Source: an uncultured Acidobacteriota bacterium (GTDB lineage Bacteria > Acidobacteriota > Vicinamibacteria > Vicinamibacterales > 2-12-FULL-66-21). Taken from it: DNA of 64,000 nt. The position numbers were made by a program, and so were the translations under genes. The stretch lies in the NCBI GenBank assembly GCA_963749835.1, contig CAVVOD010000004.1, positions 361,061 to 425,060 of the forward strand. The letters run 5' to 3'. Position 1 is the stretch's first letter. Each line of letters begins with the position of its first letter. The notes beneath the pieces are model-generated. The model was given only the letters and a program-made list of their open reading frames with translations, was not told the DNA's origin and did no database searches. This document shows, in pieces, positions 8,613 to 60,754 of this stretch.

Positions 8613-8836
8613 ACTGGACCTCAGCCCTCGCCGCGAGAGCGCGACGACAGATCTACTCATCCGCGCAGTCTCAGCAATATACGGATCGTGCTCCCTGAAC
8701 ATCGAAACGCAGTTCTCAGCCCAGCTTTTTACATCCCAATTAAGATATTGCAAACAAAGCACTTATGTCATGCATGGATACTACGGTAGCGGATGAGGCG
8801 GTGTAATGCTGAGTTAGAGGAGTATAGTGTCCTACC

Positions 8837-11803
8837 ATGATTCAGGCACTTCGGCAACTCATCCGCATTTTCGTCATCGTTCTCGGCGTGCAAAGTCTCC
8901 TGCCGGGCGTTGCGTCCGCACAGCAGCCGCCATGGGTCAACGTGACGGGCAATCTGGCGAATATGCCGTCCGAGTGCGGAAACCTGACCATGGTTTCTGC
9001 GGTGCCTGGCGCCAGCACGGTGCTTGCGGGCGTCGCAACCAAAGGCCTGTGGGCGAACAGCACCGGAGATCAATGGGTTCAGCTCGGGACCGGGGCCTCG
9101 TCAGCGACCATCCTCAATCGACCCATCGGGATTGCTTACGATCCCGTCAATTCGGGCGTCTTCTGGGAGTCAGGTATTTACGGCACTGGCGGTGGGGTGT
9201 ACAAGACTACGGATGGCGGCAGTACGTTCGTCCAACTCGGGACCGTATTTCACAACGACTATATCAGCGTTGATTTTGCCGATCCTGCCCGTCAGACGTT
9301 GCTGACCAACGGTCACGAAACGCAGCAGCAGGTGTACCTGTCGACCAACGGCGGACAGGCGTGGACCAATATCGGTTTGAACCTTCCTGCCAATACTGCG
9401 GCCGGCTATCCCCTGCTCCTGGACTCTCAGACGTATCTGGCCGGCGCAGCCCAGGATTTCGGGACCCCTGGCATCCATCGAACAACGAACAGCGGGGCCA
9501 GCTGGCAAAAGGTCAGCGACGACGGACCTAACGCGGCACCGCTGGTGGCTTCAGACGGCATTATCTATTGGTCTCATGCCGACAAGGTTCTCAAATCCAC
9601 GAATTCCGGAGTGACCTGGACTCAAGTTGGAAGCGGCCTGCAGATTGGTCCGTCCGTTGCGATCATCGAGCTGCCCGATGGAACGCTGGTGGGCGTGGGG
9701 ACCACGACCCTGATGAGGTCCGCTGATGGCGGGTCCACGTGGTCTCCGATTGGCCCGACACTGCCGCTATTCAAACCCATATCGTTGACGTATTCGGCGG
9801 CCCGCAAGGCCTTCTTCATTTCGCATTTTGACTGCAACAACTTCGTGTTGCCCGATGCGGTCATGAGCCTTACCTTCGACCCCCTGGCGCAGCCACCGAC
9901 AATGACGCTGGACAGGACGGCGCTCAGTTTCGGCGCGACGAGCGCCGGAGCCGCGTTCAGCAGCAAGACCGGCGCGCAGACGGTGCGGCTGACGCAAACC
10001 ACCGCCGGCACGGTCACGTGGACGGCGACGTCGAATCAGCCGTGGCTCTCCGTGTCGCCCGCATCGGGCACCGGCTCAGCGACACTGACGATCAACGTGG
10101 CGTACTCGAGCAGCGTCGCCACGGCGGGAGTGCAAAGCGGCGCGATCACCCTCGCGTTCAACGGCGCCGCGAACAATCCCGGGCCGGTCAACGTTTCGCT
10201 CAGGACGCTCGTCAACGGCACGGGCCCCACCGGTGCGTTCGATACGCCGACCCACAATACGACGGGCGTGACCGGCTCGATCCCGGTGACCGGCTGGGCG
10301 ATTGACGACCTCGAGGTCACCCGCGTGCGGATCCTGCGCGATCCGGTCGCCGGCGAAGGGGCCGCGCCGGTCTTCATCGGCAACGCCGTCTTTGTCGACG
10401 GGGCTCGCGTGGACGTCGCAACGCGCTACCCGGGCGCGCCGCGCAATACGCGGGCGGGCTGGGGCTATCTGATGCTCACGAATTTCCTGCCCAACCAGGG
10501 GAACGGGACGTTCAAGCTCTATGCGTATGCCGACGATGCCGACGGGAATACGACCGTTCTGGGCACAAAGACAATCGTGTGCGACAACCTGCACGCCATT
10601 ACGCCATTCGGGGCAATCGACACGCCCCTGCAGGGGGCGGTCGTCAGCGGGGTCGTCAACAACTTCGGGTGGGTGCTGGCGCCCGGGACAGGGTCAGTCC
10701 GCGCCGATGTCCCCGGAGGCGGCACGGTGAATGTCGTGATTGACGGAGCGGTCGTGGGCGCGCCCGCTGGGTGGACGTCTCGCACGGATCTGACAACGCT
10801 GTTTCCGACCGGGTTCTCGTCCCTGGCCTCGACGCTTGCGGTGTTCCCCATCGATACGACCGGGCTCACCAACGGCGTCCACACGATCGCCTGGGGGGTC
10901 GTGGCGAACACCGGGCCGGCCTCCGGGGTCGGCAGTCGCTACTTCACGGTGAGCAACGGCAGCGGTCTGCAGGCAGGCGTCCAGGCGCCCCGGGTCAGCG
11001 GCGCGGGGCCGGCCTCGATGACCGCGGTGCGCTCGCACGCACGCGGGTCGGTCGCAGAGACGATCGCGCGTAGTACAGAGGTGAACGCCGCGCCACTGGA
11101 GCGCGCGTCGATCAGCGGGCGTCGTGGTTATGACATCGATGCGCCGTTCCAGCCGTTCCCGGTTGCGGCCAGCGGCCGGACCACAGTGCAAGGGGAGGAG
11201 CTGGACCGCTTCGAGCTGCGGTTGAGCGAAACGGACGGGGAGCGCTACACCGGCTACATGCGCGGCGGGGCCGAGTTGCACGCGCTGCCGATTGGATCGC
11301 GCATCGATCCCGCGACCGGTGTGTTCACGTGGGCGCCCGGAGTCGGTTTCGTTCGCAACTACGACCTCGTGTTCGTCCGATGGACCGATGGTCAGGCGGT
11401 AGCGCGACGGGAAGTGCGATTCGTCCTGCATCCCAGGGGCAGCAATCGGCTTGGGCCGCAGGTCACCATCGACACGCCGGCTGCGAAGGCGACGGTCGGT
11501 CGCGCGTTCTCAATCGGCGGCTGGGCGATCGACCTCGATGATCGCGTGGGCACCGGAATCGACACGCTGCATGTGTGGGCGTATCCGGCGCGCGGCGGCG
11601 ACCCGATCTTCCTCGGCGCGGCGGCGTACGGCGGTGCCCGCCCCGATGTGGCGGCGATCTACGGCGATCGGTTCAAGAACAGCGGCTACGGGATCCGCGT
11701 CGACTCGCTGCCACCGGGACAGTACGATGTAGCCGTGTTCGCGTGGAGCATCCTGAAGGACGGGTTCGTGCCCGCGAAAGTGGTGAGAGTGACGGTTCGA
11801 TAG
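8837..11803 (+). CDS. large secreted protein: BNR/Asp-box beta-propeller N-terminal half plus repeated Ig-like C-terminal domains
   Basis: 988 aa with a signal peptide (..LLPGVASAQQ). Five Asp-box-like motifs are present (TTDGGSTF, STNGGQAW, TTNSGASW, STNSGVTW, SADGGSTW). Three C-terminal repeats have the form ..IDTP....V.G.....GWA.D.. An AT-rich promoter-like island lies at ~8700-8836. Confidence 0.85.
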   Translation: MIQALRQLIRIFVIVLGVQSLLPGVASAQQPPWVNVTGNLANMPSECGNLTMVSAVPGASTVLAGVATKGLWANSTGDQWVQLGTGASSATILNRPIGIAYDPVNSGVFWESGIYGTGGGVYKTTDGGSTFVQLGTVFHNDYISVDFADPARQTLLTNGHETQQQVYLSTNGGQAWTNIGLNLPANTAAGYPLLLDSQTYLAGAAQDFGTPGIHRTTNSGASWQKVSDDGPNAAPLVASDGIIYWSHADKVLKSTNSGVTWTQVGSGLQIGPSVAIIELPDGTLVGVGTTTLMRSADGGSTWSPIGPTLPLFKPISLTYSAARKAFFISHFDCNNFVLPDAVMSLTFDPLAQPPTMTLDRTALSFGATSAGAAFSSKTGAQTVRLTQTTAGTVTWTATSNQPWLSVSPASGTGSATLTINVAYSSSVATAGVQSGAITLAFNGAANNPGPVNVSLRTLVNGTGPTGAFDTPTHNTTGVTGSIPVTGWAIDDLEVTRVRILRDPVAGEGAAPVFIGNAVFVDGARVDVATRYPGAPRNTRAGWGYLMLTNFLPNQGNGTFKLYAYADDADGNTTVLGTKTIVCDNLHAITPFGAIDTPLQGAVVSGVVNNFGWVLAPGTGSVRADVPGGGTVNVVIDGAVVGAPAGWTSRTDLTTLFPTGFSSLASTLAVFPIDTTGLTNGVHTIAWGVVANTGPASGVGSRYFTVSNGSGLQAGVQAPRVSGAGPASMTAVRSHARGSVAETIARSTEVNAAPLERASISGRRGYDIDAPFQPFPVAASGRTTVQGEELDRFELRLSETDGERYTGYMRGGAELHALPIGSRIDPATGVFTWAPGVGFVRNYDLVFVRWTDGQAVARREVRFVLHPRGSNRLGPQVTIDTPAAKATVGRAFSIGGWAIDLDDRVGTGIDTLHVWAYPARGGDPIFLGAAAYGGARPDVAAIYGDRFKNSGYGIRVDSLPPGQYDVAVFAWSILKDGFVPAKVVRVTVR

Positions 11804-12233: not shown

Positions 12234-15200
12234 CTATCCCCCCGGCGCCACTGGGACAGGCGCCGGGTCGTACGCGAGGTTCGGCGCGAGCCAGCGCTCG
12301 ATGGTCTCGATGTCGGCATCCTTCCGCATGGCGTAGGACTCCACCTGATCCCGTGCAATCCGGCCGACGTTGAAGTACTTCGCCTCCGGATGTGAGAAGT
12401 ACAGCCCGCTCACCGAGGCCGCCGGCAGCATCGCAAAGCTCTCCGTCAGCGTGAGCCCCTGCCGGCCCGCGTCCAGCGCGTCGAACAGCTTGCCCTTCTC
12501 GGTGTGGTCCGGACACGCGGGATAGCCGTATGCCGGACGGATGCCACGATACTTCTCGGCGACGAGATCGTCGTTCGACAACTGTTCCTGGTCGCCGTAT
12601 CCCCAGTCCTTCCGCGCCTGCGCGTGGAGGTACTCCGCGAACGCCTCGGCGAGTCGGTCGGCCAGCGCCTTCACCATGATCGCGTTGTAGTCGTCGTGAT
12701 CCCGCTCGAAGCTCCGCGCCAGTTCGTCAGCGCCGAGTCCGGCCGTCACCGCGAACATCCCGATGTAGTCCGGCACGCCGGTGTCCAGCGGCGCGATGAA
12801 ATCCGCAAGCGATCGGTTCGGACGCTTGTCGGCAATCACTTCCTGCTGGCGCAGCATCGGCAGCCGCGTCAGCTCGACGCGACGCGTGTCGTCCGCGAAC
12901 ACGACGATGTCGTCGCCGACGCTGTTGGCGGGCCAGAAGCCATAGACACCACGGGCCGACAGCAGCTTCTCCTTGATGATCCGCTTGAGGAGTTCCTGCG
13001 CGTTCGCATACAGCTCGCGTGCGGCCGATCCGTAGGTCGGATGTTCCAGGATCGCGGGGAAGCGCCCCTTGAGCTCCCAGGCCGAGAAGAAGAACGTCCA
13101 GTCGATATACCTGGCAATATCCTCGAGCGCCACGTCATCCAGGTATCGGCGCCCGACGAACCACGGTGACGCAATGACGTGACCGTCCCAGTCGATCGTG
13201 AGGCGGTTCGCGCGCGCCTGCTCATACGTCAGCAGCGGTTTCTGCCGCCGCGTGGCGTAGCTCTCGCGAATCTCCGCCTGCGCCACACGGTTCACCCGGT
13301 CGAACTCCTCCCGCCTCTCGCCGATGACGCTTGACACCACGTCCACCGCCCGCGACGCGTCGAGCACGTGGATCACCGGGCCGGAGTATTCGTGCGCAAT
13401 CTTGACGGCCGTGTGCTGCCGGCTCGTCGTCGCTCCCCCAATCAGGAGCGGCGTCGTGAAGCCGCGGCGCTCCATCTCCCGCGCGACGAACGCCATCTCG
13501 TCGAGCGACGGCGTGATGAGCCCGCTCAGCCCGATGATGTCGGCCTTGTGTTCCACCGCCGCATCGAGGATCTTCGCCGCCGGGACCATCACCCCGAGGT
13601 CGATCACCTCGTAGTTGTTGCAGCCCAGCACGACCCCGACGATGTTCTTGCCGATATCGTGAACGTCTCCCTTCACCGTCGCCATCAGGACACGGCCCTG
13701 CGCCGACGCGGCGCCCGTGATGCGCTTACGCTCTTCCATGTACGGCAGCAGGTAGGCGACCGCCTTCTTCATCGCCCGCGCGCTCTTGACGACCTGCGGC
13801 AGGAACATCTTGCCCGCACCAAACAGATCGCCGACGACCTTCATCCCGTCCATCAGCGGGCCCTCGATGATGTGCAGCGGCTCTTCATACTTCTGCCGCG
13901 CCTCCTCGACGTCCACCTCGATGAAGTCCACGACGCCGTGCACGAGGGCGTGCGACAGCCTCGCCTCGACGGTGGCCTCGCGCCAGCCGAGATCGGCTTC
14001 CCGCTTCGTCCCGCTCCCCTTGACGCTGTCCGCGAACTGCACGAGCCGCTCCGTCGCGTCAGGACGACGGTTGAAGATGATGTCTTCGACGTGTTCCAGC
14101 AGGTCCTTCGGGATGTCTTCGTAGACGATCAGCTGTCCGGCGTTGACGATGCCCATGTCCATGCCGGCCTTGATGGCGTGATACAGGAACGCGGAATGGA
14201 TGGCCTCGCGGACGACGTCGTTGCCGCGGAACGAGAAGGACAGGTTGCTGACGCCGCCGCTGATCTTGGCCCCCGGACAGGTCGCCTTGATGATCTTCAG
14301 CGCCTCGATGTAGTTGACCGCATAGTTGTTGTGCTCCTCGAGCCCTGTCGCGATGGCGAGGATGTTCGGATCGAAAATGATGTCGGTCGGATCGAACCCC
14401 GCCTGCTGGATGAGGAGCGTGTAGGCGCGCTGGCAGATCTGCACCTTGCGCTCGACGGTGTCCGCCTGGCCTGTCTCGTCGAAGGCCATGACGACGACGC
14501 CGGCGCCGTACCGGCGGACCGTCCGCGCCTTGTGGAGGAAGTCCTCTTCCCCTTCCTTCAGGCTGATGGAGTTGACGACCCCCTTGCCCTGGACGCACTT
14601 GAGTCCGGCCTCGAGCACGGTCCACCGGGAGCTGTCGATCATCACCGGGACCCGCGCGATCTCCGGCTCCGTCGCGATGAAGTTCAGGAACGTCGTCATC
14701 GCCTGCTCGGAATCGAGCATGCCTTCGTCCATGTTGACGTCAATCATGTTGGCGCCGCCGCGCACCTGCTCGACCGCGACGCTGACGGCCTCGGTGTAGT
14801 TCCCGCTCTTGATCAGCCGCGCGAACTTCGCCGACCCCGTGACGTTGGTGCGCTCGCCAATCATCTGGAAGTTGCTCTCCGGACGGATCGTCAGCACTTC
14901 GAGCCCGGAGAACTGGGAATAGTGGACGGGATCGGGACTCGGGGCTCGAGACTCGGGATTCGGGGCTCGGGACTCGGGGCTCGGCTCGGATTCGGGACTC
15001 GGGATTCGCCCGCCCCCGCTCGCATCCACATCTGTGCGAGCTACGGCGAGGCCGCGCCGTAGCCGCGCCGCGGCGGAGGCGGGGGACTCGGGGCTCGCCG
15101 GATCGGGACTCGGCGACCCGGGCGCCGTAGCTTCCGCCTTCAGGCGGAAGGATGCTGCAGACACCCATGACGGCGACGGCAGCGGCCGCGGCGTCACGCG

Positions 15201-16190
15201 CTCGACGGCCCTGGCGATGGCCGCGATGTGTTCCGGCGTCGTGCCGCAGCAGCCCCCGAGAATGTTGGCGAAGCCGCTGGCGGCGAAATCCTCGAGCAGG
15301 ACGGCGGTTTCCTCGGGCTGCTCGTCGTACTCGCCGAACGCGTTCGGGAGCCCCGCGTTGGGATAGCTGCTGACGTAGCACTCGGATATCCGCGCGAGCT
15401 CCGCCATGTACGGCCGCATCTCGCGCGCACCGAGCGCGCAGTTGATGCCGACGCTGAACGGCTGCGCGTGCCGGATCGAGGTGTAGAACGCGTCCACTGT
15501 CTGGCCGGACAGGGTTCGGCCGCTCCGGTCCGTGATGGTGACCGAGATCATGACGGGCAGGCGCGTGCCCTTTTCCTCGAACACGTTCTCAATCGCGACG
15601 ATCGCGGCCTTGGCGCCCAGGGTGTCGAAGATGGTTTCGAGCAGGAGCAGGTCCGAGCCGCCGTCGATGAGGCCGCGGACCTGCACCTCGTAGGCCGCGC
15701 GCAGCTCGTCGAAGGTGATGGCGCGAAAGGCGGGGTTGTTGACGTCGGGTGAGATGGAGAGCGTGCGATTGGTCGGTCCGAGCGCGCCCGCGACAAAGCG
15801 CGGCCGGTCGGGCGTCCTGGCCGTCCAGGCGTCGGCCGCCTCGCGCGCAAGCCGCGCCCCTTCGACGTTGATCTCGTACGCGAACGGCTCCAGCTCGTAG
15901 TCGGCCTGTGCCACCGCGGTGCCGCCGAACGTATTGGTCTCGATGATGTCGGCGCCGGCCGCGAGGTACTCGAGGTGAATCGCGCTGATCACATCCGGGC
16001 GCGTCAGGACGAGGATGTCGCTGTCCCCCTTCAGATCCCGGGGATGCGTGGCGAACCGTTCGCCGCGGAAGTCCGCCTCCGTCAGTTTCGCGCGCTGGAT
16101 CATCGTGCCCATGGCGCCGTCGAGAATGAGGACGCGGCGTTCGAGGAGAGAGCGAAGCGTGTCGACGGCAGGACTCTTCATACTGGTCAT
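12234..16190 (-). CDS. metH: cobalamin-dependent methionine synthase
   Basis: 1318 aa. All MetH modules are recognisable: Hcy-binding (..[20 protein letters not shown]), pterin-binding (..GERTNVTGS..), B12-binding (..[13 protein letters not shown]..) and the AdoMet activation domain (..[12 protein letters not shown]..). About 90 aa longer than the 1227-aa E. coli enzyme because of the linker insertion annotated separately. Confidence 0.97.
14926..15172 (-). repeat. intergenic-type repeat cassette (heptamer run + GCGAGCTACGGCG + CTTCCGCC-TGAA-GGCGGAAG-CTACGG hairpin) embedded in-frame in metH
   Basis: + strand 14928-15008 reads gggatcgggactcggggctcgagactcgggattcggggctcgggactcggggctcggctcggattcgggactcgggattcg. 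Position 15044 has gcgagctacggcg, and 15125-15150 carries the hairpin module. It is translated as ..[86 protein letters not shown].. Confidence 0.85.
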
Positions 16191-17300: not shown

Positions 17301-17373
17301 GGTCAGCTCTCAGGTCTCAGCTGTGAGCCATTGGTATCGGAGCTGAAAGCTGAGTGCTGAGAGCTGAGAGACC
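17301..17373. repeat. inverted pair of GAGAGCT-family heptamer runs forming an imperfect hairpin
   Basis: ggtcagctctcaggtctcagctgtgagcc .. ggagctgaaagctgagtgctgagagctgagagacc. It lies between the M13 peptidase stop and the SahR-like start. Confidence 0.75.
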
Positions 17374-19448: not shown

Positions 19449-22076
19449 CTACAACCCGGTCGGCAATGCGGCGGCGCGCCGCGCCCTGAGCCACTCGGTC
19501 AGCTTCGCGGGTTGCGTGGCGGCAAGCGAGGAGCACTCGTTGATCCGCTCGACCGCCTGCTGGAGTGTCCGCGTGGCATCCGGCACCTTGTGAAGGGTGA
19601 AGAACTGCTTCACGTTCACGGCTGTCCGCGCGTCGCAGAACGTGCCGAGCGCGGCAATCACCTGAGTATTGCCCCCGAACTGGCCGGTTTTCTTCTGCAC
19701 CTGCGCCCATCGTTCACGGAGGAGCGGCCAGGCGAGTTTCCGCGCGTCAGGGTTGCCCAGCAGATTCGCCAGGAAGACCTTGGCGTCCTGGCTGCGCACA
19801 TCCGGCCCGACGATGTAATCGATCGTCCTGCGCACCAGGGCGGGATCGGTGAAGCCGGCGAGCCCGTACAAATAGCGATAGTGCTCTTCGGGGTCCGTCG
19901 CGGCTTTGCTACGCTCGACATACTTGGCGTACAGCGCGGCGTCACCACGCCGGGCCGCCACTCTGACAGCGGCGTTCAGCAGGGTCGGCTCGACGGTGCC
20001 TGGTTTCGCAAGCTCCTCGAGGACCAGGCTGCGCGCCTTCGCGACGACGGCAGGATCGCCGGCGGCCTCGCCCAGTACCGAGACGAGCGACGCGCGAAGC
20101 GCGCGGGTCTCGTCGCTATCGGAGGCACCGGACGACCATCCGACCCGTTCGAGTGCCGGCCCCAGCAGCGAGCTGACCCACGCACTGTACGCCGGCCGCG
20201 AGCCGGGCGTGGTCAGGTTGTCGCCGATGGTTCCCAGCGAGGCCACCAGTGTGGCGACGACCGCCGCGTCCCGCTCCCCTTTGAATCCAGCGGCGAGGTC
20301 CATGAAGGAGCTGACATCATGCCGTCCCTGGAGCACAAGTGCCCACTCGTCGTCGAGGAGCGAGATCCGCTCGCCGGGCGTCAGTGACGTGATGCCTGCC
20401 GCAAGCTTCGGAAGCATCGCCGGCGGATTCACGACACGGTAATAGCCCCGCGCCCCTGCGTTGGCCATCACATATGCGGGGCACGACTCCAGCGGCACAT
20501 CCAGGGGCTCCTCGCCGACGACCTCGCATGCCGTCTTCCCGTCTGGCGTCTTTATGCAGACCGGAATGTCCCATGTGCGCGGCGGGGCGACGCGGCGGGG
20601 CCCCGAGGCGCCGGTCGGCGCCGTCTCCTGACTGACCGTCGCTGTGCCACGGCCGTCAGCGCACTTGACCGTCGCATCCACCATCGGCACGCCGGGCCGA
20701 TCCACGAAGCCGGCCATCACGCGATCGACGGGCTTCCCGGTGCTCGTCGCCAGCGTGCCCCAGAAGTCCTCTGCGGCGGCATTGCCGTACTTGAACCGTT
20801 CGATGTAGGCGTTGACGCCGGTCCTGAACGCCTCTTCGCCGACCCATGCCTCGATCATCCGGAGCACGGCTGCCCCTTTTCGTACGCGATCGCGTCGAAG
20901 AGCTCGCCGATCTCGTCGGGAGTCGATGCGCTGGTACGGATCGCGCGGGTCGTCTCGAGAGAGTCGAGCGCCATCGCTTTCTGGTTCGACTGAACCTCCT
21001 CGAGCTCCATGTTCCACTCGGGCTTCCATGCCTTGACCGGCTTGCTCGCCATCCACGTGGCGAACCCTTCGTTCAGCCAGATGTCGTCCCACCACCGCAT
21101 CGTCACGAGATCGCCGAACCACTGGTGGGCCATTTCGTGGGCGAGCACGCTGGCGATGTTCTTGCGGACCCTGACCGACGCGCCTTTCGGATCGGCGAGG
21201 AGGAGCGTCTCGCGGTAGAAGATCGCGGCGGTGTTCTCCATCGCTCCCGCGGCAAAGTCCGGGACGGCAACGATGTCGAGCTTCTTGAACGGATACTTCA
21301 CGGTGTAGTAGCGGTTGTAGTACCCGCAGGATCTCGGCGGCCGCCTCGAGCGCCAGGCCGGTCTGCCCCTTCTTGTCCGGTGTGGAGCAGATGCGAATCG
21401 GGATCCCGTCGGCGCTGCGTGACGAGCATTCGAAGTCCCCGACCGCCAGCGCCAGCAGGTACGTCGACATCTTCGGCGTGGTCTCGAATGTGACCGTGTG
21501 CTTCCCCGGCTTCGGGCTCGGCGTGTCGGACACGATCGCGCCGTTCGAGATCGCGTGGTCTCCCGTGTCGATCGTGGCGCTCAGCGCGAACGTCGCCTTG
21601 AACGCGGGCTCGTCGAACGACGGAAACATGCGTCGCGCGTCGGTCGCCTCGAGCTGCGTCACTGCGTAGCGGCGATTGTTGGCCTTGCTGAGATACAGCC
21701 CGCGCAACTGGTTGTTCAGGATGCCGGTGTATTTCACGGCGATCTCGGCGCGCCCCGCGGCAATGACCTGCGGCACCGTGAAGGTGGCCTGTTCGCGCTT
21801 CGGGTCCAGCGTGACGCGGGCGGTCTGCGTGCTGCCGCCGGCAGCGATGGTGACCGTGTCGAATGTGATCTCCGCAGCGTTCAGGGTGATCGTCCGCGAA
21901 GGCTTCTCGAGCGTCACGGTAATCCGCTCGGTGGCCGTAAAACTCGCCGCCGGGAGGTTCGGCTCGACGGCGATCTCGTAGTGCTCCGGGACGACGTTGC
22001 CAGGGAGCCGCTGGGCACGGGCGGGGGAGGCGAAGAGGATCAGCGCGGCACTGAGGACCAGAGGAAATTTACTCAT
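19449..22076 (-). pseudogene. pepN: M1 family aminopeptidase N, disrupted by two compensating 1-nt frameshifts (or sequencing errors) that scramble the catalytic core
   Basis: Begins MSKFPLVLSAALILFASPARAQ at ~22076 inside the 1401-aa track ORF. The catalytic segment ([22 protein letters not shown]) is only readable in another frame (track ORF 20855..21301). Frame switches are at ~21324-21326 (extra G: ctgcggGtactac) and ~20873-20876 (one G missing: gaaaagggg^cagcc, expected [10 protein letters not shown]). Confidence 0.85.
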
Positions 22077-22121
22077 GATGGCACCCGATGAAAGCTCCAA
22101 CTGACGGCCTATACTGGCCGG

Positions 22122-22742
22122 GTGAAAATGAAAGTGTACCCCAGCGCACGTCCTGTGGCCGCGCTCGTGCTGGCGCACGGCGCGGGCGCGGGGCAATCCA
22201 GCCCATTCATGGTTCGCGTCGCCACCGGACTGGCTGAGCGGGGACTCTCCACCGCGACCTTTGATTTCGGCTACATGAGCACGGGACGCAAGGTGCCTGA
22301 CCGCGCGCCCGTGCTCGAAGCCGCGTGGCGCGAGGCGATCGAGTCGGCCCGATCGGAGTTCAGGGGACTGGCGCTCTACATCGGCGGCAAATCCATGGGC
22401 GGACGCATCGCTTCCCACGTGGCCTCGCAGGGAGGAACCGGCCCGCTCGCCGGCCTGGTCTTCCTGGGTTATCCGCTGCATCCGCCGGGGCGTCCCGACC
22501 AGCGCCGCGACGCCCACCTGCCGGCCATCGCTGAACCGATGCTCTTCGTGCAGGGAAGCCGGGACGCCTTCGGCTCGGGGGATGAGATTCGTCAGCTGCT
22601 GCCGTCGCTGCAGCACGCGACGCTGGAGGAGATCCAGGGAGGCGACCACTCCTTCAAAGTCCCGGGCGGCGCCAGCCAGCAGGCGCCCGTCCTCACGGGC
22701 ATCATGGACGCGGTAGCCGCGTGGACACAGAGGACGGCCTGA
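22122..22742 (+). CDS. alpha/beta hydrolase (KANL3/Tex30-like predicted hydrolase family)
   Basis: 206 aa. ..LVLAHGAGAG.., nucleophile elbow ..GGKSMGGR.., ..FVQGSRDAFG.., ..GGDHSF. Confidence 0.8.
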   Translation: MKMKVYPSARPVAALVLAHGAGAGQSSPFMVRVATGLAERGLSTATFDFGYMSTGRKVPDRAPVLEAAWREAIESARSEFRGLALYIGGKSMGGRIASHVASQGGTGPLAGLVFLGYPLHPPGRPDQRRDAHLPAIAEPMLFVQGSRDAFGSGDEIRQLLPSLQHATLEEIQGGDHSFKVPGGASQQAPVLTGIMDAVAAWTQRTA

Positions 22743-22761
22743 CTTGCGCCTGCGCTCGATG

Positions 22762-22890
22762 CGGGAGCTACGGCGGGGCCAGGCCCCATTTCGGGATTCG
22801 GGACTCGGGACTCGGGGTTCGGAAATGCGGAAGCTGGAAGCCGGAAGCTGGAAGCCGGAAGCTGGAAGCTGGCAGCTGACAGCTGATGTC
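22762..22890. repeat. spacer holding three abutting heptamer families plus GGGAGCTACGGCGG and a GGGGCC-A-GGCCCC palindrome
   Basis: gggattc gggactc gggactc ggggttc, then cggaagc tggaagc x6, then tggcagc tgacagc tgatgtc. Read directly; all have a 7-nt period. Confidence 0.9.
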
Positions 22891-22898
22891 TGCCCCTG

Positions 22899-23555
22899 AT
22901 GTCTGAGTCTGACCTTCGCCTCATCGCTGCGACGACCCATGGCCGCGTCCTGGTGCGCGACGCGCGGGCGGCCGCCGCGCGGGGAGTCCTCGTGGGGTTC
23001 CATGGCTACATGGAACAGGCGGTCATCCAGATGGAGCGGCTGCAGGCGATTCCCGGAGCCGCGCGGTGGACGCTCGTGTCCATCCAGGCGCTCCACCGGT
23101 TCTACCGGGGGCGCAGCGAAGAGGTCGTGGCAAGCTGGATGACGAGCCAGGATCGCGAGGCCGCCATCGCCGACAACATCGAGTACGTCGATGCGGCGCT
23201 CGACACGGTCCCCCACGATGCGTCCACGAAGATCGTCTTTGCGGGTTTCTCGCAAGGCGTGGCCATGGCCTTCCGGGCCGCGGTCAGAGGACGTCGTCCC
23301 GCCGCGGGCGTCATTGCGGTTGGCGGCGACGTGCCGCCGGAACTGCTGCTGGATCAGGACGCGGCGTTCCCGTTCGTGCTGCTCGCACGGGGCGCGCGCG
23401 ACGAGTGGCTCACCGCACAGAAGTTCAGAGCGGACCTGAACGCTCTCGCGGAGCGCACGCCTGGACCGAGAGTTCGCGCCGTCGAATTCGAGGGCGGACA
23501 TGAATGGAACGACGCCGTGGCCGAGGCGGCGGGGGATTTTCTCGAGTCCGTCTAG
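22899..23555 (+). CDS. phospholipase/carboxylesterase-type alpha/beta hydrolase
   Basis: 218 aa. ..VLVGFHGY.., nucleophile elbow ..FAGFSQGVAMA.., C-terminal ..GGHEW. Confidence 0.8.
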   Translation: MSESDLRLIAATTHGRVLVRDARAAAARGVLVGFHGYMEQAVIQMERLQAIPGAARWTLVSIQALHRFYRGRSEEVVASWMTSQDREAAIADNIEYVDAALDTVPHDASTKIVFAGFSQGVAMAFRAAVRGRRPAAGVIAVGGDVPPELLLDQDAAFPFVLLARGARDEWLTAQKFRADLNALAERTPGPRVRAVEFEGGHEWNDAVAEAAGDFLESV

Positions 23556-23754
23556 TGTCCTGACCGCGTGGATCGTGCATAAGTCCCGGAGCGCGGCGCC
23601 CGGCTGGCTAGGCGCGACGACCGAGAATACTGGCCGTATTTGAGGGAGGAGCAACGCCGCCAGGCCGGGGCCCCCGCCGCGCGTGTTTTGCGCGGTGGGG
23701 TGGAGAAGGGATGCCCCGCCCGGGAATTATGTCGCGAACCACGCGGTCAGGACA

Positions 23755-33648: not shown

Positions 33649-33692
33649 CGCCGTAGCTCGCACCGATCAGCGAACGGAGGCGAGCGAATCCC
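33649..33692. repeat. short repeat module: CGCCGTAGCTCGC (reverse of GCGAGCTACGGCG) plus GAATCCC x2
   Basis: ccgccgtagctcgcaccgatcagcgaacggaggcgagcgaatcccgaatcccg, read directly. Confidence 0.7.
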
Positions 33693-33702
33693 GAATCCCG
33701 TC

Positions 33703-42973: not shown

Positions 42974-44020
42974 ATGAATCGTCGACGCTTTCTCGGATCC
43001 GCGGCGGCGGCAGCAGCCGTTGCCGGCAGCATGCCCCGCGTGTGGGCGGGGGCCCAGCGGCTCACAGTCGTCAAACCGCGGCGGCTCGCTGCCGGCGACA
43101 CCGTGGGGCTCGTGGCCCCGGCGAATGCGACGTTCCAGTCCGTCGAGCTCGAGATCGCCAGGGAGTCGCTCCAGGCGCTGGGGTTCAAGGTGCTCGTGGG
43201 CGGGCACCTGCGCGACCGTCATGGCTACCTGGCGGGCCAGGACAAGGATCGCGCTGCGGACATCAATCGCTTCTTCGCCGACGCGTCCGTTCGCGCGGTG
43301 CTGCCCATCCGCGGCGGCTGGGGAAGCAGCCGCGTGCTTCCCTACCTGGACTTCGATGTCATTCGCCGCAACCCAAAGGTCGTGCTCGGGTTCAGCGACA
43401 TCTCGGCGCTGCTGCTGGCGATACACGCCAAGACCGGGCTCGTCACATTCCACGGCCCGAACGGTATGGGACGGTGGGATGCGTTCTCAGTGGACTGTTT
43501 CAGGCGCCTGCTGATCCAGGGGGAATCGATCCTCTTCGAGAACCCGCGTGAGCTCAACGAGCGAAACGTGCTGACCCCGATCGACAACCGCCCGATGACG
43601 ATCACGGGCGGCAAGGCGCGAGGCCGCCTGCTGGGCGGGAACCTGACCGTCCTCACGACGATTGGGGGATCGCCGTACCTGCCATCGTGGGACGGCGCGA
43701 TCTTCTTCTGCGAAGACGTCAACGAGGAGTACTACCGGATCGATCGGATGCTCACACAGCTGAAACTGGCCGGCGTGCTCTCCAGGCTGGCAGGGTTCGT
43801 CTTCGGCACGTGCTCCGAATGCGGCCCGGGGGACGGCGCCTTCGGCGCGCTGACGCTCGAGGAGATCTTCGCCGACCACATCAAGCCGCTTGGGATCCCG
43901 GCGTGGTCCGGCGCGATGATCGGACACGACATGTCGCAATGGACGCTGGCCCAGGGCATCGACGTCGAGGCGGATGCCGACGCCGGCACGCTCAGGATGC
44001 TGGAGCCGGGCGTGATCTAA
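42974..44020 (+). CDS. ldcA: LD-carboxypeptidase (S66 family, LdcA-like) with a Tat-type signal
   Basis: MNRRRFLGSAAAAAAVAGS is a twin-arginine signal. ..VGLVAPA.., ..IRGGWGS.., nucleophile context ..GFSDISALLLA.., ..GHD.. Confidence 0.85.
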   Translation: MNRRRFLGSAAAAAAVAGSMPRVWAGAQRLTVVKPRRLAAGDTVGLVAPANATFQSVELEIARESLQALGFKVLVGGHLRDRHGYLAGQDKDRAADINRFFADASVRAVLPIRGGWGSSRVLPYLDFDVIRRNPKVVLGFSDISALLLAIHAKTGLVTFHGPNGMGRWDAFSVDCFRRLLIQGESILFENPRELNERNVLTPIDNRPMTITGGKARGRLLGGNLTVLTTIGGSPYLPSWDGAIFFCEDVNEEYYRIDRMLTQLKLAGVLSRLAGFVFGTCSECGPGDGAFGALTLEEIFADHIKPLGIPAWSGAMIGHDMSQWTLAQGIDVEADADAGTLRMLEPGVI

Positions 44021-44030
44021 GCGCTGAATC

Positions 44031-44080
44031 CTTCCGCCTAAAGGCGGAAGCTACGGAGTCCCGATCCCCGATCCCCGATC
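44031..44080. terminator. hairpin module CTTCCGCC-TAAA-GGCGGAAG-CTACGG followed by CCCGATC heptamers, filling the 59-nt spacer between convergent ldcA and the M49 peptidase gene; candidate bidirectional terminator
   Basis: cttccgcctaaaggcggaagctacggagtcccgatccccgatccccgatc, read directly. It has an 8-bp GC-rich stem and a 4-nt loop. The terminator function is inferred only from its position. Confidence 0.5.
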
Positions 44081-46077
44081 TATCCTCGCCCCGAATATTC
44101 GAGCATCTGTCTCTTCAAGTCGCGCGGATAGGAGATCGTCACATCGGTGATGATCCCGTCCGGTCCCGTGACCGGTTCGAGCCTGGGCTGGACGAAGCCT
44201 GTGTAGGACGGCATGTTCAGGTGATCCACTCGCGCGACGACTTCGTCGCGCAGCGACGCCTCGAAATGCACACCGTACGTCTCGAACATCGTCTTTGCGG
44301 TCTCGTAGTCGCCTTCCGCCTTGATCCGTTGAACTTCGCCGAGCAGCCGTCCGACGCTCTCCTGGAAGTCTGTCGCGTTGACCATGACGTAGTACGTCTT
44401 GCCCTCGCGCTGCCGCACCTCGATCGCGTTCGAGTTGGCCAGGAGCCACCGCACGATCATCTGGCGGTTCCGCATGTGGTCTTCCTCGATCTGCGTCCCT
44501 TCGCGCACGCGCCGGAGCTGAACGAGGGCGTTGCGGGCATAGCCCTCATACTCGGCCTGGATGACTTCGGCGTGGTCGGCGGCCTTCACCAGGCCGAGCT
44601 CCACCATCCGCGGGCTCGGCAGGAAGTACAGCGCGACCAGATCCGCGCGCGATTCTTCCAGCGCGGAGTATTGCTCCTTCAGCACCGACTGCGGATTGCC
44701 CTTCAAGTGCTCGCCGATCTTCCCGGAGCCGTGGCCAATCACTTCGTGGAGATCGGTCGTCAATTCCCCCGCAAGGCTGCTCCATTTCTCGGCTCTCGCG
44801 GCCTCCTCGGGCGACCACGCGAACTCACGCCGGAACTCGGCCGACGTCGACTTGTCGTACGCCTCGTTGACGTTGGCCAGAGAGACGGACTTGCTGCCGT
44901 ACGTCTCGCGGATATCCTGATCGTTCGGCAGGTTGATGCCCACCGGCGTAATCGGCGAGGACTCACCCGATTCGACGACGACGTCGATGGCGTTGGCGGT
45001 GATGCCTCGCACACCCTGCTTCCGATACTGCGGCGCCCAGGGCATCCGATCTTCGAACCACTGCGCATCGGCAGCGAGCTTGCGGATGCCGGCGGTCTTC
45101 TCGCGGTTGACGTAGAAGACCAGCGCTTCCCATGCCCCCTTCATCCCCCGCGGGTCCATGTAGACCTCGACGAACCCGTTGATCGTGTCGACGGGAGACT
45201 CCTTGTCGTGGACCCAGGCGATGTCGTACGCCGCGCGGTCGGCCGTCTCACCGGTCGTGTAGAACCTGATGAGCGCGCGCAGCGCGGCGGCCATCGATTC
45301 GGTGGCGTACGGAATCGCCGCCTCCAGATGGCCGATGATGGCGCGGATCTCTTTGTCGTATCGTTCACCGACGCGGTACACCTCCTCCAGGACCCTGCCG
45401 CCGCGCTTCACGAGGCGTGAATTGAGGGGATATCGCTCTTCGAATCCTTCGAGGTCGTGCATCGATACGCCGACGTACAGGTTGTTCGCGCTGCCGGTCA
45501 GGATGTCCAGGCCCGGCCCAGGCGTCTTGTGCGTAACGGTCGGATCCACCGTGAGGTCGAAGAAGATCGGCCGAAGCCTGGTGAGCAGGGCATCGAGCGT
45601 CTCGCCCGGCTGGACGGGGAAGCTGGCTCCAGCGGCCGCCGCCGCCTGCGCGGCCGCCGCAAACGCCTCCGGCGTGCATTTGGGCACGAACTTACGCGCG
45701 GTCAGGTTGTTGAAAGGGCCCACGTTCAGCCAGAACAGCTTCGTGTAGGTTTCAATCTCACCGAGCGTCTGCGGGTCCACCCCGGCCGGGTGCGTGATGA
45801 TTTCCTCGAGCACGTCACGCATCTCGAGGTTGTGCGCGTACCGCTGGTCGTAGAAGATGTCGCGGCCCGCCAGCGCCGCCTGGTACAGGTGCCAGATGAG
45901 GATCTTCTGATCGACGGGGAGCGCCGCGAACCCGTCGGCGGACAGCTGTACAACGGCAGCTTCCTCCACGCGCTCCAGCAGATACGTGCGTTCCGCAGGA
46001 GCGTCCGTATTCTGCGCCGGGACCACCGGCGTCTCGGGCGCTGGCGTATTGCTGTTCCTGCTGTTTGCTTCGCTCAT
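44080..46077 (-). CDS. M49 family peptidase (dipeptidyl-peptidase III-like)
   Basis: 665 aa. It has the HExxGH zinc motif (..DLHEVIGHGSGK..) and the second motif EExRAD (..ALEESRADLVALYF..). Confidence 0.85.
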   Translation of the reverse strand: MSEANSRNSNTPAPETPVVPAQNTDAPAERTYLLERVEEAAVVQLSADGFAALPVDQKILIWHLYQAALAGRDIFYDQRYAHNLEMRDVLEEIITHPAGVDPQTLGEIETYTKLFWLNVGPFNNLTARKFVPKCTPEAFAAAAQAAAAAGASFPVQPGETLDALLTRLRPIFFDLTVDPTVTHKTPGPGLDILTGSANNLYVGVSMHDLEGFEERYPLNSRLVKRGGRVLEEVYRVGERYDKEIRAIIGHLEAAIPYATESMAAALRALIRFYTTGETADRAAYDIAWVHDKESPVDTINGFVEVYMDPRGMKGAWEALVFYVNREKTAGIRKLAADAQWFEDRMPWAPQYRKQGVRGITANAIDVVVESGESSPITPVGINLPNDQDIRETYGSKSVSLANVNEAYDKSTSAEFRREFAWSPEEAARAEKWSSLAGELTTDLHEVIGHGSGKIGEHLKGNPQSVLKEQYSALEESRADLVALYFLPSPRMVELGLVKAADHAEVIQAEYEGYARNALVQLRRVREGTQIEEDHMRNRQMIVRWLLANSNAIEVRQREGKTYYVMVNATDFQESVGRLLGEVQRIKAEGDYETAKTMFETYGVHFEASLRDEVVARVDHLNMPSYTGFVQPRLEPVTGPDGIITDVTISYPRDLKRQMLEYSGRG

Positions 46078-46098
46078 GCGTCCTGCTTTCCCGGTTTC

Positions 46099-46172
46099 TT
46101 CCTTCCGCCTGACCAGCCTGCGCCAAACCCCGAACCCCGAGTCCCGAATCCCGATCCCCCGAGTCCCGAATC
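46099..46172. repeat. half hairpin module (CCTTCCGCCTGA..) plus a CCCGARY heptamer run with six C-tracts
   Basis: ccttccgcctgaccagcctgcgccaaaccccgaaccccgagtcccgaatcccgatcccccgagtcccgaatc. It abuts the beta-CASP gene stop. Confidence 0.8.
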
Positions 46173-47626
46173 TAGTCCAACTCTACGGTCTCGCGGTGCT
46201 GCGGCATCATCGTCTTCCAGCCGAGCTTCGCGGTGATGGATGCGCCAAGTGCTTCCATCGATGCCGGCTCTCCATGCACCAGGAAGGTCGTGCGCGGTGG
46301 ACGGCTGAAGCCGCCGAGCCAGCGCAGGATCTCGGTGGAGTCTGCGTGGGCCGACATCGATTCAATCAGCTCGACCCGGCAGTTGACGGGAATCGTCTGG
46401 CCGTGGATACGGACCGTCTTCTGGCCGTCCACGAGTTGCCGGCCGCGCGTACCGACGGCCTGGTATCCGGCAAAGAGCACCGTGTTGCGGGCGTCGGGCA
46501 GGCATGCCTTGAGGTGATGCAACACCCGGCCGCCCGTCGCCATCCCGCTGGCGGAAATGATGATCGCCGGCGTTTTCGACTGCGTCAGCTGTTTGGATTC
46601 CGCCGCGGTCGAGATGGTCTTGAACCGCTCCGTGCAGAACGCACAAATCTGGCGCTCGCGCTGCGCGTGGCGGCGGCGGGTCTCCGGCGGGTCGAGCCGG
46701 GCCGCGGGCCCGTGCGGCGCCTTGTCGTCGTGCGCCTCCGGCTGCATGTCTGGATCGAGCTCGCGAAGCCGCTCGGTGTATCGGGCCAGCGCCTCGACGG
46801 CCATGGGGCTGTCGACAAACACTGGAAGCATCGGGATACGCCGCTCTTCCTCAAGCCGCTTCACCCAGTAGATCAGCTCTTCGACGCGCCCGATGGCGAA
46901 TGCGGGGATGATCACCCGGCCGCCGCGTCCTTCTGCCGCCGTGATCGCCTGCGCCAGCGCCGAGCCGCTGTCGTCTGCGTCGTGCACCCGATTGCCGTAC
47001 GTGGACTCGACGAGCAGGTAGTCGGCCTCCGGGACGAGCGTGGGATCGGGCAGCACCGGACGGTCGAAGCGTCCGAGGTCGCCGCCGAACAGAATCGTGC
47101 GTCCCCCTGTCTTGACGCGCGCATACGAGGAGCCGAGCAGATGCCCGGCGTTGATGAACTCGACCTCGACGTCGGCCGCCACCGGCATGGGGCGCTCGTA
47201 CCCGACGGGTTGCAGCAGCGAGACGGCGCGGAACGCGTCGGCCTCGCCATACAGCGGCAGCGCGGGGGCATGCTTCGAGTATCCGTGACGATTCGCGTTC
47301 GCCGCGTCTTCTTCCTGGATGCGGCCCGAGTCCGGGAGGACGATCCGGCACAGATCCTGGGTGCCGGCCGTGCAGAACACCCGTCCCCTGAAACCCTGCG
47401 CCACGAGCCGCGGCAGATACCCGCAATGATCCAGGTGCGCGTGCGTGAGGACGATCGCGTCGATTTCCCGGGGCGGTACGGGGAACTCCTGCCAGTTCCG
47501 CTCGCGCAGCTCCTTGAGCCCCTGGAAAAGACCCGCGTCGATGAGGACCTTGGCGGTGCCGGTGTCGAGCAGGTATTTGGAGCCCGTGACCGTCCGGGCT
47601 GCGCCGAGGAAGGTGATGGAAGGCAT
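46172..47626 (-). CDS. MBL-fold metallo-hydrolase of the beta-CASP RNA-metabolising family
   Basis: 484 aa. ..ITFLGAARTVTGSKYLL..VLIDAGLFQG.., ..VLTHAHLDHCGYLP.. (HxHxDH), ..ESTYG.., ..SMSAHAD.. Confidence 0.88.
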   Translation of the reverse strand: MPSITFLGAARTVTGSKYLLDTGTAKVLIDAGLFQGLKELRERNWQEFPVPPREIDAIVLTHAHLDHCGYLPRLVAQGFRGRVFCTAGTQDLCRIVLPDSGRIQEEDAANANRHGYSKHAPALPLYGEADAFRAVSLLQPVGYERPMPVAADVEVEFINAGHLLGSSYARVKTGGRTILFGGDLGRFDRPVLPDPTLVPEADYLLVESTYGNRVHDADDSGSALAQAITAAEGRGGRVIIPAFAIGRVEELIYWVKRLEEERRIPMLPVFVDSPMAVEALARYTERLRELDPDMQPEAHDDKAPHGPAARLDPPETRRRHAQRERQICAFCTERFKTISTAAESKQLTQSKTPAIIISASGMATGGRVLHHLKACLPDARNTVLFAGYQAVGTRGRQLVDGQKTVRIHGQTIPVNCRVELIESMSAHADSTEILRWLGGFSRPPRTTFLVHGEPASMEALGASITAKLGWKTMMPQHRETVELD

Positions 47627-47666
47627 GGAGGTTCAGTATAATCGTGGGCGGCAGGCAATCCGCTCG

Positions 47667-48530
47667 ATGCAACCCCTCCTCGACAATCTGCGTTCGGGAC
47701 GTCCGGTGATTGCGGCGGAGCTCCGGCCGCCGCGGGCCGAGCTGGAGACGTCCGCGAGCATGGATGCCTGGATCGACACATATCATGCCGTGCGGAACCT
47801 CACTCGCACCGGCACATTCGTCTTCCTGACCGACAGCGCCGTCGGCTCGAAGGAGGAAGACAATCTCCGGCATCTGGTGATCAATCTCGGGAGCGACGTC
47901 CCTCGCGCCGGTGTCGTGCCGTTCCTGACGTGCAAGCACCCGCTCGACTATTGCCTGGCCTACGCGGATCGCGCACGGGATCAGGGATTCGAGGCACTGG
48001 TCGTCCTCGGCGGCGACACGAGCGTCGGTGCCCCGCGGTGCCTCGAGCACGCCTGGCAGCTCCGCGGCGAGATCCGCCAGCGCGTGCCTGGCCTTACGCT
48101 CGGCGGGTGGGCCAATCCGCACAGGAATGCCGCCACGCAGGTCGGACACCTGCTCTCGGAGCACGCGAACGCCGAGTTCTACCTGACGCAGATCGTCTCG
48201 CATCACAGCCGCGCGCACGTCGAAGGGTTCCTCGAAGAGTCGGACAGGCGCGCCCTGTCACTTCCCGGCATGTTCGGCGTGTTCTACTACCGCTCGGCCA
48301 ATGCCAAGACCCTCGCCGCGCTCAGCGGCTTCCTGCCCGTTCCCGCCAGGGAACTGACAGCGGAGTTCGCGGCGGGAGCGACGCCGGAAGAGATCTGCGC
48401 GCTCTCGATCCGCAGCCTCACCGCCGCAGGCGTGCGGCATTTCTATGTGAGCAACCTCCCGATCAATCGCGCCGCGCAAACGCTCCAGCGCATCATGGAC
48501 CTGGCCGGGGCGGTGACCGCCATTCCCTAG
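47667..48530 (+). CDS. methylenetetrahydrofolate reductase-like protein
   Basis: In track ORF 47445..48530. Its segments are collinear with MetF (ELRPP, PFLTCKH, ALVVLGGD, GGWANP, FYLTQIV, PGMFGVF, VRHFYVSNL). The start is uncertain (ATG 47667 preferred; 47616 or 47625 possible). Confidence 0.7.
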   Translation: MQPLLDNLRSGRPVIAAELRPPRAELETSASMDAWIDTYHAVRNLTRTGTFVFLTDSAVGSKEEDNLRHLVINLGSDVPRAGVVPFLTCKHPLDYCLAYADRARDQGFEALVVLGGDTSVGAPRCLEHAWQLRGEIRQRVPGLTLGGWANPHRNAATQVGHLLSEHANAEFYLTQIVSHHSRAHVEGFLEESDRRALSLPGMFGVFYYRSANAKTLAALSGFLPVPARELTAEFAAGATPEEICALSIRSLTAAGVRHFYVSNLPINRAAQTLQRIMDLAGAVTAIP

Positions 48531-48542
48531 CCGCTTCGCGGC

Positions 48543-48646
48543 CGGATCGGGATTCGGGATTCGAGTCCCGAGTCGTCTTCCGGCTAAAGCCGGAAGCTAC
48601 GTGGTGCAGGTCCCGATCCCCGAACCCCGAATCCCGAATCCCGAGT
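48543..48646. repeat. composite: G-orientation heptamers, hairpin module CTTCCGGC-TAAA-GCCGGAAG-CTACG (48577-48601), then C-orientation heptamers
   Basis: ggatcgggattcgggattcgagtcccgagtcgtcttccggctaaagccggaagctacgtggtgcaggtcccgatccccgaaccccgaatcccgaatcccgag, read directly. Confidence 0.9.
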
Positions 48647-48660
48647 GTTAACATGGCCCG

Positions 48661-49314
48661 ATGCCCCCACGTCAGTATCGGGCCGGCGAGTCGATCGAAG
48701 ACTTCTGCCGCGCGTGCAAGACCGATCGCATGCACACCGTCGTCGCGGCGGACGCCGAGGGCCGGGCGATACGGGTTGTCTGCGGCTACTGCCAGAGTGA
48801 GCACAACTATCGGGGCGGTCCCAGGGTCGGCCAGGAGTCGCGCGTGGCGAGCTGGGGAAGCGACATCACCGCGCCGACCAGGGAGCCCGCGAAGCGCGTG
48901 GCCAGGAACGACCGTGAGCCATTTCCCATCGTCAGCGAGCGGGAACGGACGGCTCCACCCGTGAGCGAGGAGTCCGGCATGGACATCGAGATGATCCTGC
49001 GGCGTGTGATTCGCGAGGAGGCCGGGATAACAGCCGCGGCGCCCGCGGAGAAGTGGCGCAACGGCCACCTGGTTCTCCGGCCGGGAAACGCGGCGCTGCA
49101 GGAGAAGAGCTGGCCCATTGAGACGTTCTTTCACAAGATCGTGATGGTGCGGAACCGGCTGCGGACGCTCGAGCAGCAGGTCAACGCCGCGGAGATGCCC
49201 GAAGACGTGAAGGTGAAGCTGCAGGCATACGTGAGCGGGTGTTACGGATCGCTGACGAGCTTCAATGTGCTCTTCGCGGACGAGGACGATCAGTTCAAGG
49301 GGGTTGGTGGGTAG
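48661..49314 (+). CDS. hypothetical protein with an N-terminal CxxC..CxxC zinc-ribbon-like motif
   Basis: 217 aa. ..DFCRACKTDRMHTVV..VVCGYCQSEHNY.. The C-terminal half is helical-looking and protein-like. No family recognised. Confidence 0.65.
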   Translation: MPPRQYRAGESIEDFCRACKTDRMHTVVAADAEGRAIRVVCGYCQSEHNYRGGPRVGQESRVASWGSDITAPTREPAKRVARNDREPFPIVSERERTAPPVSEESGMDIEMILRRVIREEAGITAAAPAEKWRNGHLVLRPGNAALQEKSWPIETFFHKIVMVRNRLRTLEQQVNAAEMPEDVKVKLQAYVSGCYGSLTSFNVLFADEDDQFKGVGG

Positions 49315-60623: not shown

Positions 60624-60754
60624 GGGGACTCTGGATCGGGGATCGGGGATCAGGGATTGGGGACTGGGGACTGGGGATAAGGGATTGGGACGTTCGAGTC
60701 CTCGAATCCTGAATCCCGAGTCCCCGATCCCTGATCCCCGATCCCCGATCCCGG
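60624..60754. repeat. long hairpin of opposed heptamer runs: 24-bp perfect inverted repeat (60634-60657 / 60727-60750); the G-rich arm has >=8 G-tracts
   Basis: gatcggggatcggggatcagggat is the exact reverse complement of atccctgatccccgatccccgatc. The sequence between the arms is also partly self-complementary (ggggactggggactggggataagggattggga / tcctcgaatcctgaatcccgagtcccc). Confidence 0.9.

Follow-up and report, generated by a model that had tools for sequence, protein, structure and literature searches.

The hairpin module CTTCCGSC-TRAA-GSCGGAAG-CTACG is very probably a REP family of the GTAG-tagged superfamily that is specific to Vicinamibacterales-type Acidobacteriota. This superfamily is defined by short palindromes whose GT[AG]G foot does not pair (PMC3733652; PMC6006769), and the module shows the features by which such REPs are recognized: the unpaired foot, the size of the unit, a high number of dispersed and mostly extragenic copies, inverted dimers and clusters, and subfamilies that differ by complementary residues. 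The initial annotation of this DNA had proposed a REP-like element, and the foot, the copy number, the dimers, the clusters and the subfamilies support that proposal. The kind of element is well known. The family itself, with its stem CTTCCGSC and loop TRAA, seems not to have been described before; no description of it was found in the literature searched or in Rfam.

Three exact copies are present in the window, the whole 64-kb stretch of DNA that was analysed (65.6% G+C), at the coordinates originally reported and with the loop T[AG]AA and the tail CTACG as originally written. Copy 1 (44031-44056, plus strand; conserved unit 44031-44055) reads cttccgcctaaaggcggaagctacgg, that is CTTCCGCC-TAAA-GGCGGAAG-CTACGG, with the hairpin at 44031-44050 and the tag CTACG at 44051-44055. 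It takes up most of the 59 bp that separate two convergent genes, one for an LD-carboxypeptidase (42974-44020, plus strand, stop at 44020) and one for an M49/DPP3 peptidase (44080-46077, minus strand, stop at 44080). Copy 2 (48577-48601, plus strand) is cttccggctaaagccggaagctacg, or CTTCCGGC-TAAA-GCCGGAAG-CTACG, and carries the G-C variant at stem pair 7; its neighbours are an MTHFR-like gene with its stop at 48530 and an ORF of 217 aa that starts at 48661. Copy 3 (15125-15150, minus strand; unit 15126-15150) is cttccgcctgaaggcggaagctacgg, or CTTCCGCC-TGAA-GGCGGAAG-CTACGG, and is located inside metH. Also present is a decayed half copy, which had been noted near 46109 and was found at 46102-46112 (plus strand) as CTTCCGCCTGA, equivalent to CTTCCGCC-TGA. 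It retains the 5' arm and the start of the loop, and the 3' arm is gone. The density is therefore three copies and one half copy per 64 kb, and all three copies are singletons, not REPIN-like doublets. The degenerate 20-mer hairpin pattern matches three times in the window, compared with 0.26 matches expected.

The core AGCTACGG occurs six times in the window (15039, 15125 on the minus strand, 22766, 33651 on the minus strand, 44049, and 56463 on the minus strand), compared with 0.75 occurrences expected, and none of 100 shuffles reached six. Cores that stand without a hairpin, as the initial annotation had described, are among these sites. The orphan core at 22766-22773 (plus strand) is part of tGCGGGAGCTACGG, in which 12 of 14 bases are identical to the 3' arm and tag, and CCCGA-type and GGAAGCT heptamer arrays follow downstream (22790-22886). 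The orphan core at 33651-33658 (minus strand) adjoins CGAATCC heptamers and has GTGCGAGCTACGGCG in common with 15034-15048. This 15-mer, found at two unrelated sites (15034-15048, plus strand, and 33651-33665, minus strand), may be a piece of some other repeat that contains GTAG. A minus-strand ORF of 1401 codons (19449-23654) overlaps a repeat-filled gap and the better-supported plus-strand ORFs at 22122-22742 and 22899-23555. This is probably a shadow ORF of the kind typical of high-G+C DNA.

About 180 copies that deviate from the stem by at most two substitutions were collected from the retrieved loci. The outer stem and the tag were part of the pattern by which most of these loci were found, so counts at those positions carry a bias, from which only the inner pairs, the non-seed copies and the flanks are free. 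The aligned copies are highly informative at exactly 25 positions (the 20-nt hairpin, C[T/C]AC and a G), and information content is zero in the flanks. Thus, there are no terminal inverted repeats and there is no longer element. The unit consists of a G+C-rich stem of 8 bp, a 4-nt loop (T[G/A]AA) and the unpaired tag C[T/C]AC-G. Read on the opposite strand, it is C-GT[A/G]G followed by the hairpin, and the invariant 3' tail CTACG of the initial annotation is the reverse complement of C-GTAG. GTAG or GTGG flanks 154 of 181 copies (GTAG in 130 occurrences, GTGG in 39), and 46 of the 75 copies that were found without a tag requirement (61%) carry the tag. Over all loci, a perfect hairpin of at least 7 bp precedes 4.8% of CTAC sites and about 0.2% of sites of control tetramers, an enrichment of approximately 20-fold; the value for GTAG in that position is 0.03%. 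When the loop is read in the orientation of the tag, it is TGAA in 85 and TAAA in 38 copies, together 123 of the 141 singly tagged copies. The orientation of the loop is thus locked to that of the tag, and the unit as a whole is asymmetric.

The compensatory change that had been reported at stem position 7 (C to G, with G to C in its partner) is real and holds across the family. Of 181 copies, 135 have C-G at this pair, 34 have G-C and 12 have no pairing there, so mismatches are far from being as frequent as compensated changes. With the 3' arm and tag anchored and the 5' arm left free, the two bases of pair 7 agree in 156 of 157 copies; exact 3' arms were used, as a loose pattern with one substitution proved too noisy in G+C-rich DNA. 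The search pattern placed no constraint on the inner two pairs, yet they are intact in every member of the family but about three. A sister subfamily, GGTCCGSC-TRAA-GSCGGACA-CTACG, has G-C at pair 2 where the main family has T-A, and it occurs with both states of pair 7. Among 81 distinct sequences, both sides vary at two of the eight pairs. Covariation scored 0.150, compared with 0.081 in shuffles; none of 500 shuffles reached 0.150, and slid controls scored lower. The constraint on pairing is real. The initial annotation went further and took covariation as an indication of selection on the structure. The covariation was confirmed, but it does not amount to proof of selection: the two changing pairs define subfamilies and so represent few independent compensatory events, and covariation alone does not separate structural selection from descent from palindromic master copies.

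The distribution of the family was determined by a scan of one genome per species (185,579 species) with the pattern CTTCCG-N8-CGGAAGCTACG, in which two inner pairs and the loop are free. At least 100 loci were recovered, and at least 86 of these have fully paired copies, so the family extends far beyond the three copies of the window. Among the matches listed, all paired copies are in MAGs labelled Acidobacteriota, Vicinamibacterales or "uncultured bacterium", and a single MAG (CAVOHG01) contributes more than 25 loci. Fourteen of the loci have unpaired inner positions, and the nine of these with titles are from Gemmatimonadaceae, Verrucomicrobia, Haliangiales, Terriglobales, Arthrobacter and other MAGs. 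Every match checked in an unrelated group was unpaired, and we treat these fourteen matches as chance. Dozens of MAGs contain the 25-mer between flanks that are unrelated, and viral contigs gave no match to the REP pattern. Homologues of the MetH and DPP3 of the window have Vicinamibacterales as their source labels. Related MAGs also contain further families of GTAG-tagged hairpins, GGTCCGSC...GSCGGACA-CTACG and GSCGGGT...ACCCGSC-CTAC (for example, in locus L003 near 4930, L099, and L102 at 11060-11085), and both again include complementary variants with C and G swapped.

Gene calls were made with our own self-trained codon log-odds caller, and by these calls about 80% of the copies fall between genes. 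Of these intergenic copies, 32% are in convergent gaps (18% in the background) and 9% are in divergent gaps (20% in the background). Many copies in the related loci form inverted pairs, both (-,+) and (+,-), with members 40-90 bp apart, and others form direct tandem clusters of 2-5 units. Tandem arrays that consist of the 3' arm and tag and lack the 5' arm, (GGCGGAAGCTAC-N)n, were also identified (L028 at 7453-7560, L005 at 314-350, and in L032, L066 and L088), and about 18% of exact GGCGGAAGCTAC sites have no hairpin partner.

Copies are not maintained at orthologous sites. Two related loci, L104 and L105, are syntenic with the window (their DPP3 is approximately 82-84% identical), and their orthologous gaps are without copies 1 and 2; those that correspond to the site of copy 2 are just 44 and 22 bp long, respectively. 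At the orthologous position of the half copy, L104, a related metagenome contig, has an intact hairpin, TCCGCC-TGAA-GGCGGA-GCCAC. The linker of MetH is equally variable. The metH ORF of the window (12234-16190, minus strand) has 1318 codons and encodes all five MetH domains in one frame, and Pfam coverage of the protein stops at aa 329 and resumes at aa 445, so residues 330-444 are skipped. This region links the homocysteine domain to the pterin domain and contains approximately 80 aa inserted in frame (14927-15166, minus strand); copy 3, which had been reported as lying inside metH, is indeed part of this insertion. The insertion is made of copy 3, a second palindrome and CCCGAnn heptamers, all of them in the metH reading frame; copy 3 is on the coding strand of metH, with the conceptual translation ...SFRLKAEAT.... 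The second palindrome (15040-15063) is GCTACGGCG-aggccg-CGCCGTAGC, in which the GTAG/CTAC motif is paired in the stem, and a homologous sequence, ...CGGCGGACCGCCGTAGC..., occurs in the metH linker of L102. Many Vicinamibacterales orthologs have a linker of about 10 aa; at the other extreme are orthologs whose inserts are of similar length to that of the window. The closest relative, L103, has three heptamers only, and L102 has another long insert with a GGTCCGGC-type REP at the same place. The in-frame insert in MetH neatly illustrates something that earlier work on REPs had already described. The differences at orthologous sites and in the metH linker mark a turning-over, insertion-prone repeat, not a conserved regulatory site.

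These observations bear directly on the possibility that the module is a host-selected RNA hairpin at the 3' ends of mRNAs, where it would serve as a terminator or as a barrier to 3'-5' exonucleases. The bare hairpin of copy 1 folds strongly (-13.2 kcal/mol, z -5.1), copies 1 and 2 begin 10 and 46 nt past stop codons, and the copies lie preferentially in convergent and co-directional gaps and are scarce in divergent ones, all in line with this explanation. However, in co-directional gaps 40 copies are oriented opposite to transcription and 21 along it, and mismatches of the G-T type (7) are no commoner than those of the A-C type (8). There is thus no strand-specific wobble signature, and nothing indicates RNA-level selection on one strand. 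Nor does a host-selected RNA explain why the orthologous gaps of close relatives are without copies, why copies occur in frame within coding sequence and in tandem clusters, or what role the unpaired, orientation-locked GTAG tag would have. No Rfam family matches the element: the whole window gave no match at gathering thresholds, and a search of 43900-48800 in E-value mode gave a single sub-threshold chance hit (E 0.98). We therefore regard an RNA function as unlikely to be the reason for the conservation of the module. A terminator, one of the alternatives offered in the initial annotation, can be set aside in its intrinsic form, as CTACGG and not a T-run comes after the stem, no copy has a T-run behind it, a terminator scan finds nothing at the copies, both orientations relative to the flanking genes occur, and copies are missing at orthologous sites.

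The way in which a REP of this type may be mobilised is inferred from characterised REPs, primarily those of the E. coli TnpA-REP/RAYT system. By analogy, the hairpin and its GTAG foot would be recognized as single-stranded DNA by a HUH/Y1 nuclease (RAYT/TnpA-REP), and the putative single-stranded target of the cognate enzyme is 5'-CGTAGCTTCCGCCTTCAGGCGGAAG-3'. The nuclease could cleave and rejoin DNA next to the foot, so that copies are spread or reshuffled, probably during replication. Where it is transcribed, the hairpin would end up at the 3' end of an mRNA and may stabilise the transcript. Such stabilisation would be a by-product and not the reason for conservation of the sequence.

The initial annotation had suggested looking for a RAYT gene. 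A tblastn search that used E. coli RayT as the query detected none in the window and 105 related loci, which amount to about 0.8 Mb, and two scans for HUH and Y motifs, including the class-3 signature, identified no Y1 HUH gene in the same loci. ORFs between REP pairs were inspected by eye; none has RAYT-like HUH/Y motifs, and one resembles a Mug-type glycosylase. We also scanned metagenomes with an alignment of five RAYT sequences from plasmid hits as the query, and none of the 80 metagenomic RAYT loci carries the CTTCCGSC REP. RAYT is typically a single-copy gene, and the DNA sampled, from some 30 genomes, comes to well below 1 Mb; the failure to find one is uninformative rather than negative. 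On one metagenome contig with 67% G+C (L161), a RAYT gene (1501-2034) is preceded by an inverted pair of a different CTAC-tagged motif, GGCGCACGCTAC (1307-1380). This arrangement looks like the REPtron of another organism, and the presence of a GTAG-type inverted pair beside RAYT indicates that the search approach can detect REPtrons.

Heptamer repeats are a prominent feature of the window. The initial annotation had stated that each copy is followed by a heptamer run. This is correct within the window, where a CCCGAnn run begins approximately 3-18 nt after each copy, but it is not a trait of the family, as a CCCGA-type run occurs within 70 nt of only 7 of 185 copies; for comparison, 39 of 457 intergenic gaps carry one. 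Probably, heptamers and REPs share the few permissive spacers in this genome. Copy 1 adjoins a run of three CCCGATC units (44060-44080, plus strand), which is outside the conserved unit. Copy 2 is surrounded by inverted arrays (48544-48646), with GGATCGG/GATTCGG... on the left and CCCGATC/CCCGAAC/CCCGAAT... on the right, and the 130-nt gap that contains it (48531-48660) can fold into a single long stem that carries the REP at the tip (-62.9 and -69.2 kcal/mol on the two strands, z -4.4 and -5.2). Intergenic CCCGAnn / nnTCGGG arrays are abundant (5779-5982, 48537-48650 and 60624-60752, with more at 8594-8613, 22790-22822, 33685-33700 and 46126-46169). Heptamer arrays often occur as two inverted arrays that could form very long stems, and are reminiscent of cyanobacterial STRR heptamers. 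Other heptamer families in the window include TGAGAGC (eight units), CAGCTCT (ten units) and the inverted pair TCAGCTC/GAGCTGA (2873-2930, 8498-8566 and 17303-17370). Arrays of the form "cagctatcagc...", which are similar to these other families, flank REPs in related MAGs.

In some arrays, the repeated unit is part of the REP arm. These include (GGAAGCT/GGAAGCC)n at 22829-22886 of the window, with (GGAAGCT)n at 22829-22878, and (CTTCCGG)n in relatives (L061 near 5900 and L008 near 2970). The identity of the heptamer unit with part of the arm suggests amplification in a 7-nt register that acts on REP sequence. Conceivably, then, the family spreads without a classical RAYT, either by slippage or template switching in a 7-nt register or through an unrecognised nuclease. 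The (GGCGGAAGCTAC)n arrays, the (CTTCCGG)n and (GGAAGCT)n microsatellites and, in this genome, the REPs at the tips of inverted-heptamer stems hint at such copying, which we nonetheless consider quite improbable. If it does occur, the REPs and the abundant heptamers of this lineage would constitute one composite, self-propagating class of intergenic element.

The same arrays might be taken to mean that no autonomous 25-nt unit exists and that the module is a by-product of heptamer microsatellites or a fragment of a longer MITE or IS. Every copy in the window adjoins CCCGAnn runs, and arrays of REP-arm sequence exist both at 22829-22878 and in L061. This reading is nevertheless very unlikely, given how rarely copies lie near a heptamer run across the family, the sharp end of conservation at the borders of the 25-nt unit, and the recurrence of the 25-mer among unrelated flanks. 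A heptamer-dependent element was rejected on the first of these grounds; a MITE was rejected because conservation is limited to 25 nt and there are no conserved flanks.

We give just as little credence to a palindromic double-stranded operator to which a dimeric regulator or a nucleoid-associated protein binds. The inverted repeat formed by the 8+8 stem is perfect and compensated changes also preserve its dyad symmetry, but the element is asymmetric, with a one-sided tag and a loop locked to it, its copies are mostly at the 3' ends of genes and not in promoter regions, the half-copy arrays and intragenic copies do not suit a regulon, and orthologous sites do not keep their copies. A CRISPR array was rejected because the intervening sequence between tandem copies (L036, L096, L077) is repeated too.

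The identification as a GTAG-tagged REP reveals no new kind of system. It does provide a searchable 25-nt signature for Vicinamibacterales, which are abundant and little-studied soil Acidobacteria. REPs lead to surplus ORF calls, interrupt assemblies and give rise to in-frame inserts such as that in MetH, so the signature should be of help in annotation; it could also serve as a lineage marker for the binning of metagenomes. The GTAG-REP superfamily is extended to another phylum-level lineage, and, if a cognate RAYT were found, the family would be a test case for long-term vertical coexistence of REPINs and RAYTs outside Proteobacteria.

Several known systems resemble this REP in part. Like Rho-independent terminators, it is a G+C-rich hairpin that can occur just after stop codons. 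Unlike them, it is without a U-tract, occurs in both orientations, has a conserved unpaired tag and is in some cases intragenic. Rickettsia palindromic elements and CGTC-tagged REPs are also palindromic and inserted in frame in coding genes, as seen here in the metH linker, but the former are 100-150 bp long and the latter have a CGTC tag, whereas the Vicinamibacterales element has 25 nt and a GTAG tag. Within Acidobacteria, high-copy hairpin repeats have been tied to Y1 HUH proteins in the form of class 3 TnpA-Y1 structures, of which Solibacter usitatus, for example, has about 600 copies (PMC6006769). Those structures have a CnGA foot and weak, atypical folds, in contrast to the GT[AG]G foot and perfect stem of the Vicinamibacterales REP.

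The REPs of E. coli share with this family the combination of hairpin and GTAG foot. They are imperfect, bulged and about 35 nt long, whereas the Vicinamibacterales REP has a perfect 8-bp stem and a 4-nt loop. E. coli RayT (PDB 4ER8) has no homologue in the window and the 105 loci, and the cognate enzyme of the Vicinamibacterales REP is only putative. In E. coli, TnpA-REP (RayT) reads the hairpin and its 5' GTAG guide as single-stranded DNA (PMC6006769).

The closest comparison is with the GTAG-tagged REPs as a whole, from which the present family differs in three respects. Its stem and loop (CTTCCGSC / TRAA) and its Vicinamibacterales host are not among the described families that we found; a RAYT flanked by its REPs (a REPtron) was not located in the window and 105 loci; and (GGCGGAAGCTAC)n tandem arrays of the 3' arm and tag occur in Vicinamibacterales relatives. 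GTAG-tagged REPs are reportedly also the subject of work by Nunvar in 2010. These GTAG REPs, which include REP, BIME and REPIN elements (Di Nocera et al., 2013, PMC3733652; Bertels & Rainey, 2011, PMC3116915), measure 20-40 nt and have 5-13 bp in the stem, 2-20 nt in the loop and a GTAG that stays unpaired. Their subfamilies carry alternative complementary residues, their dimers are head-to-head or tail-to-tail, and clusters occur, as do units inside genes that encode up to about 80 aa (PMC3733652). The Vicinamibacterales family has the same short palindrome and unpaired GT[A/G]G, tens to hundreds of copies, subfamilies, dimers and clusters, the same preference for convergent and co-directional gaps, and the same occasional in-frame intragenic copies.
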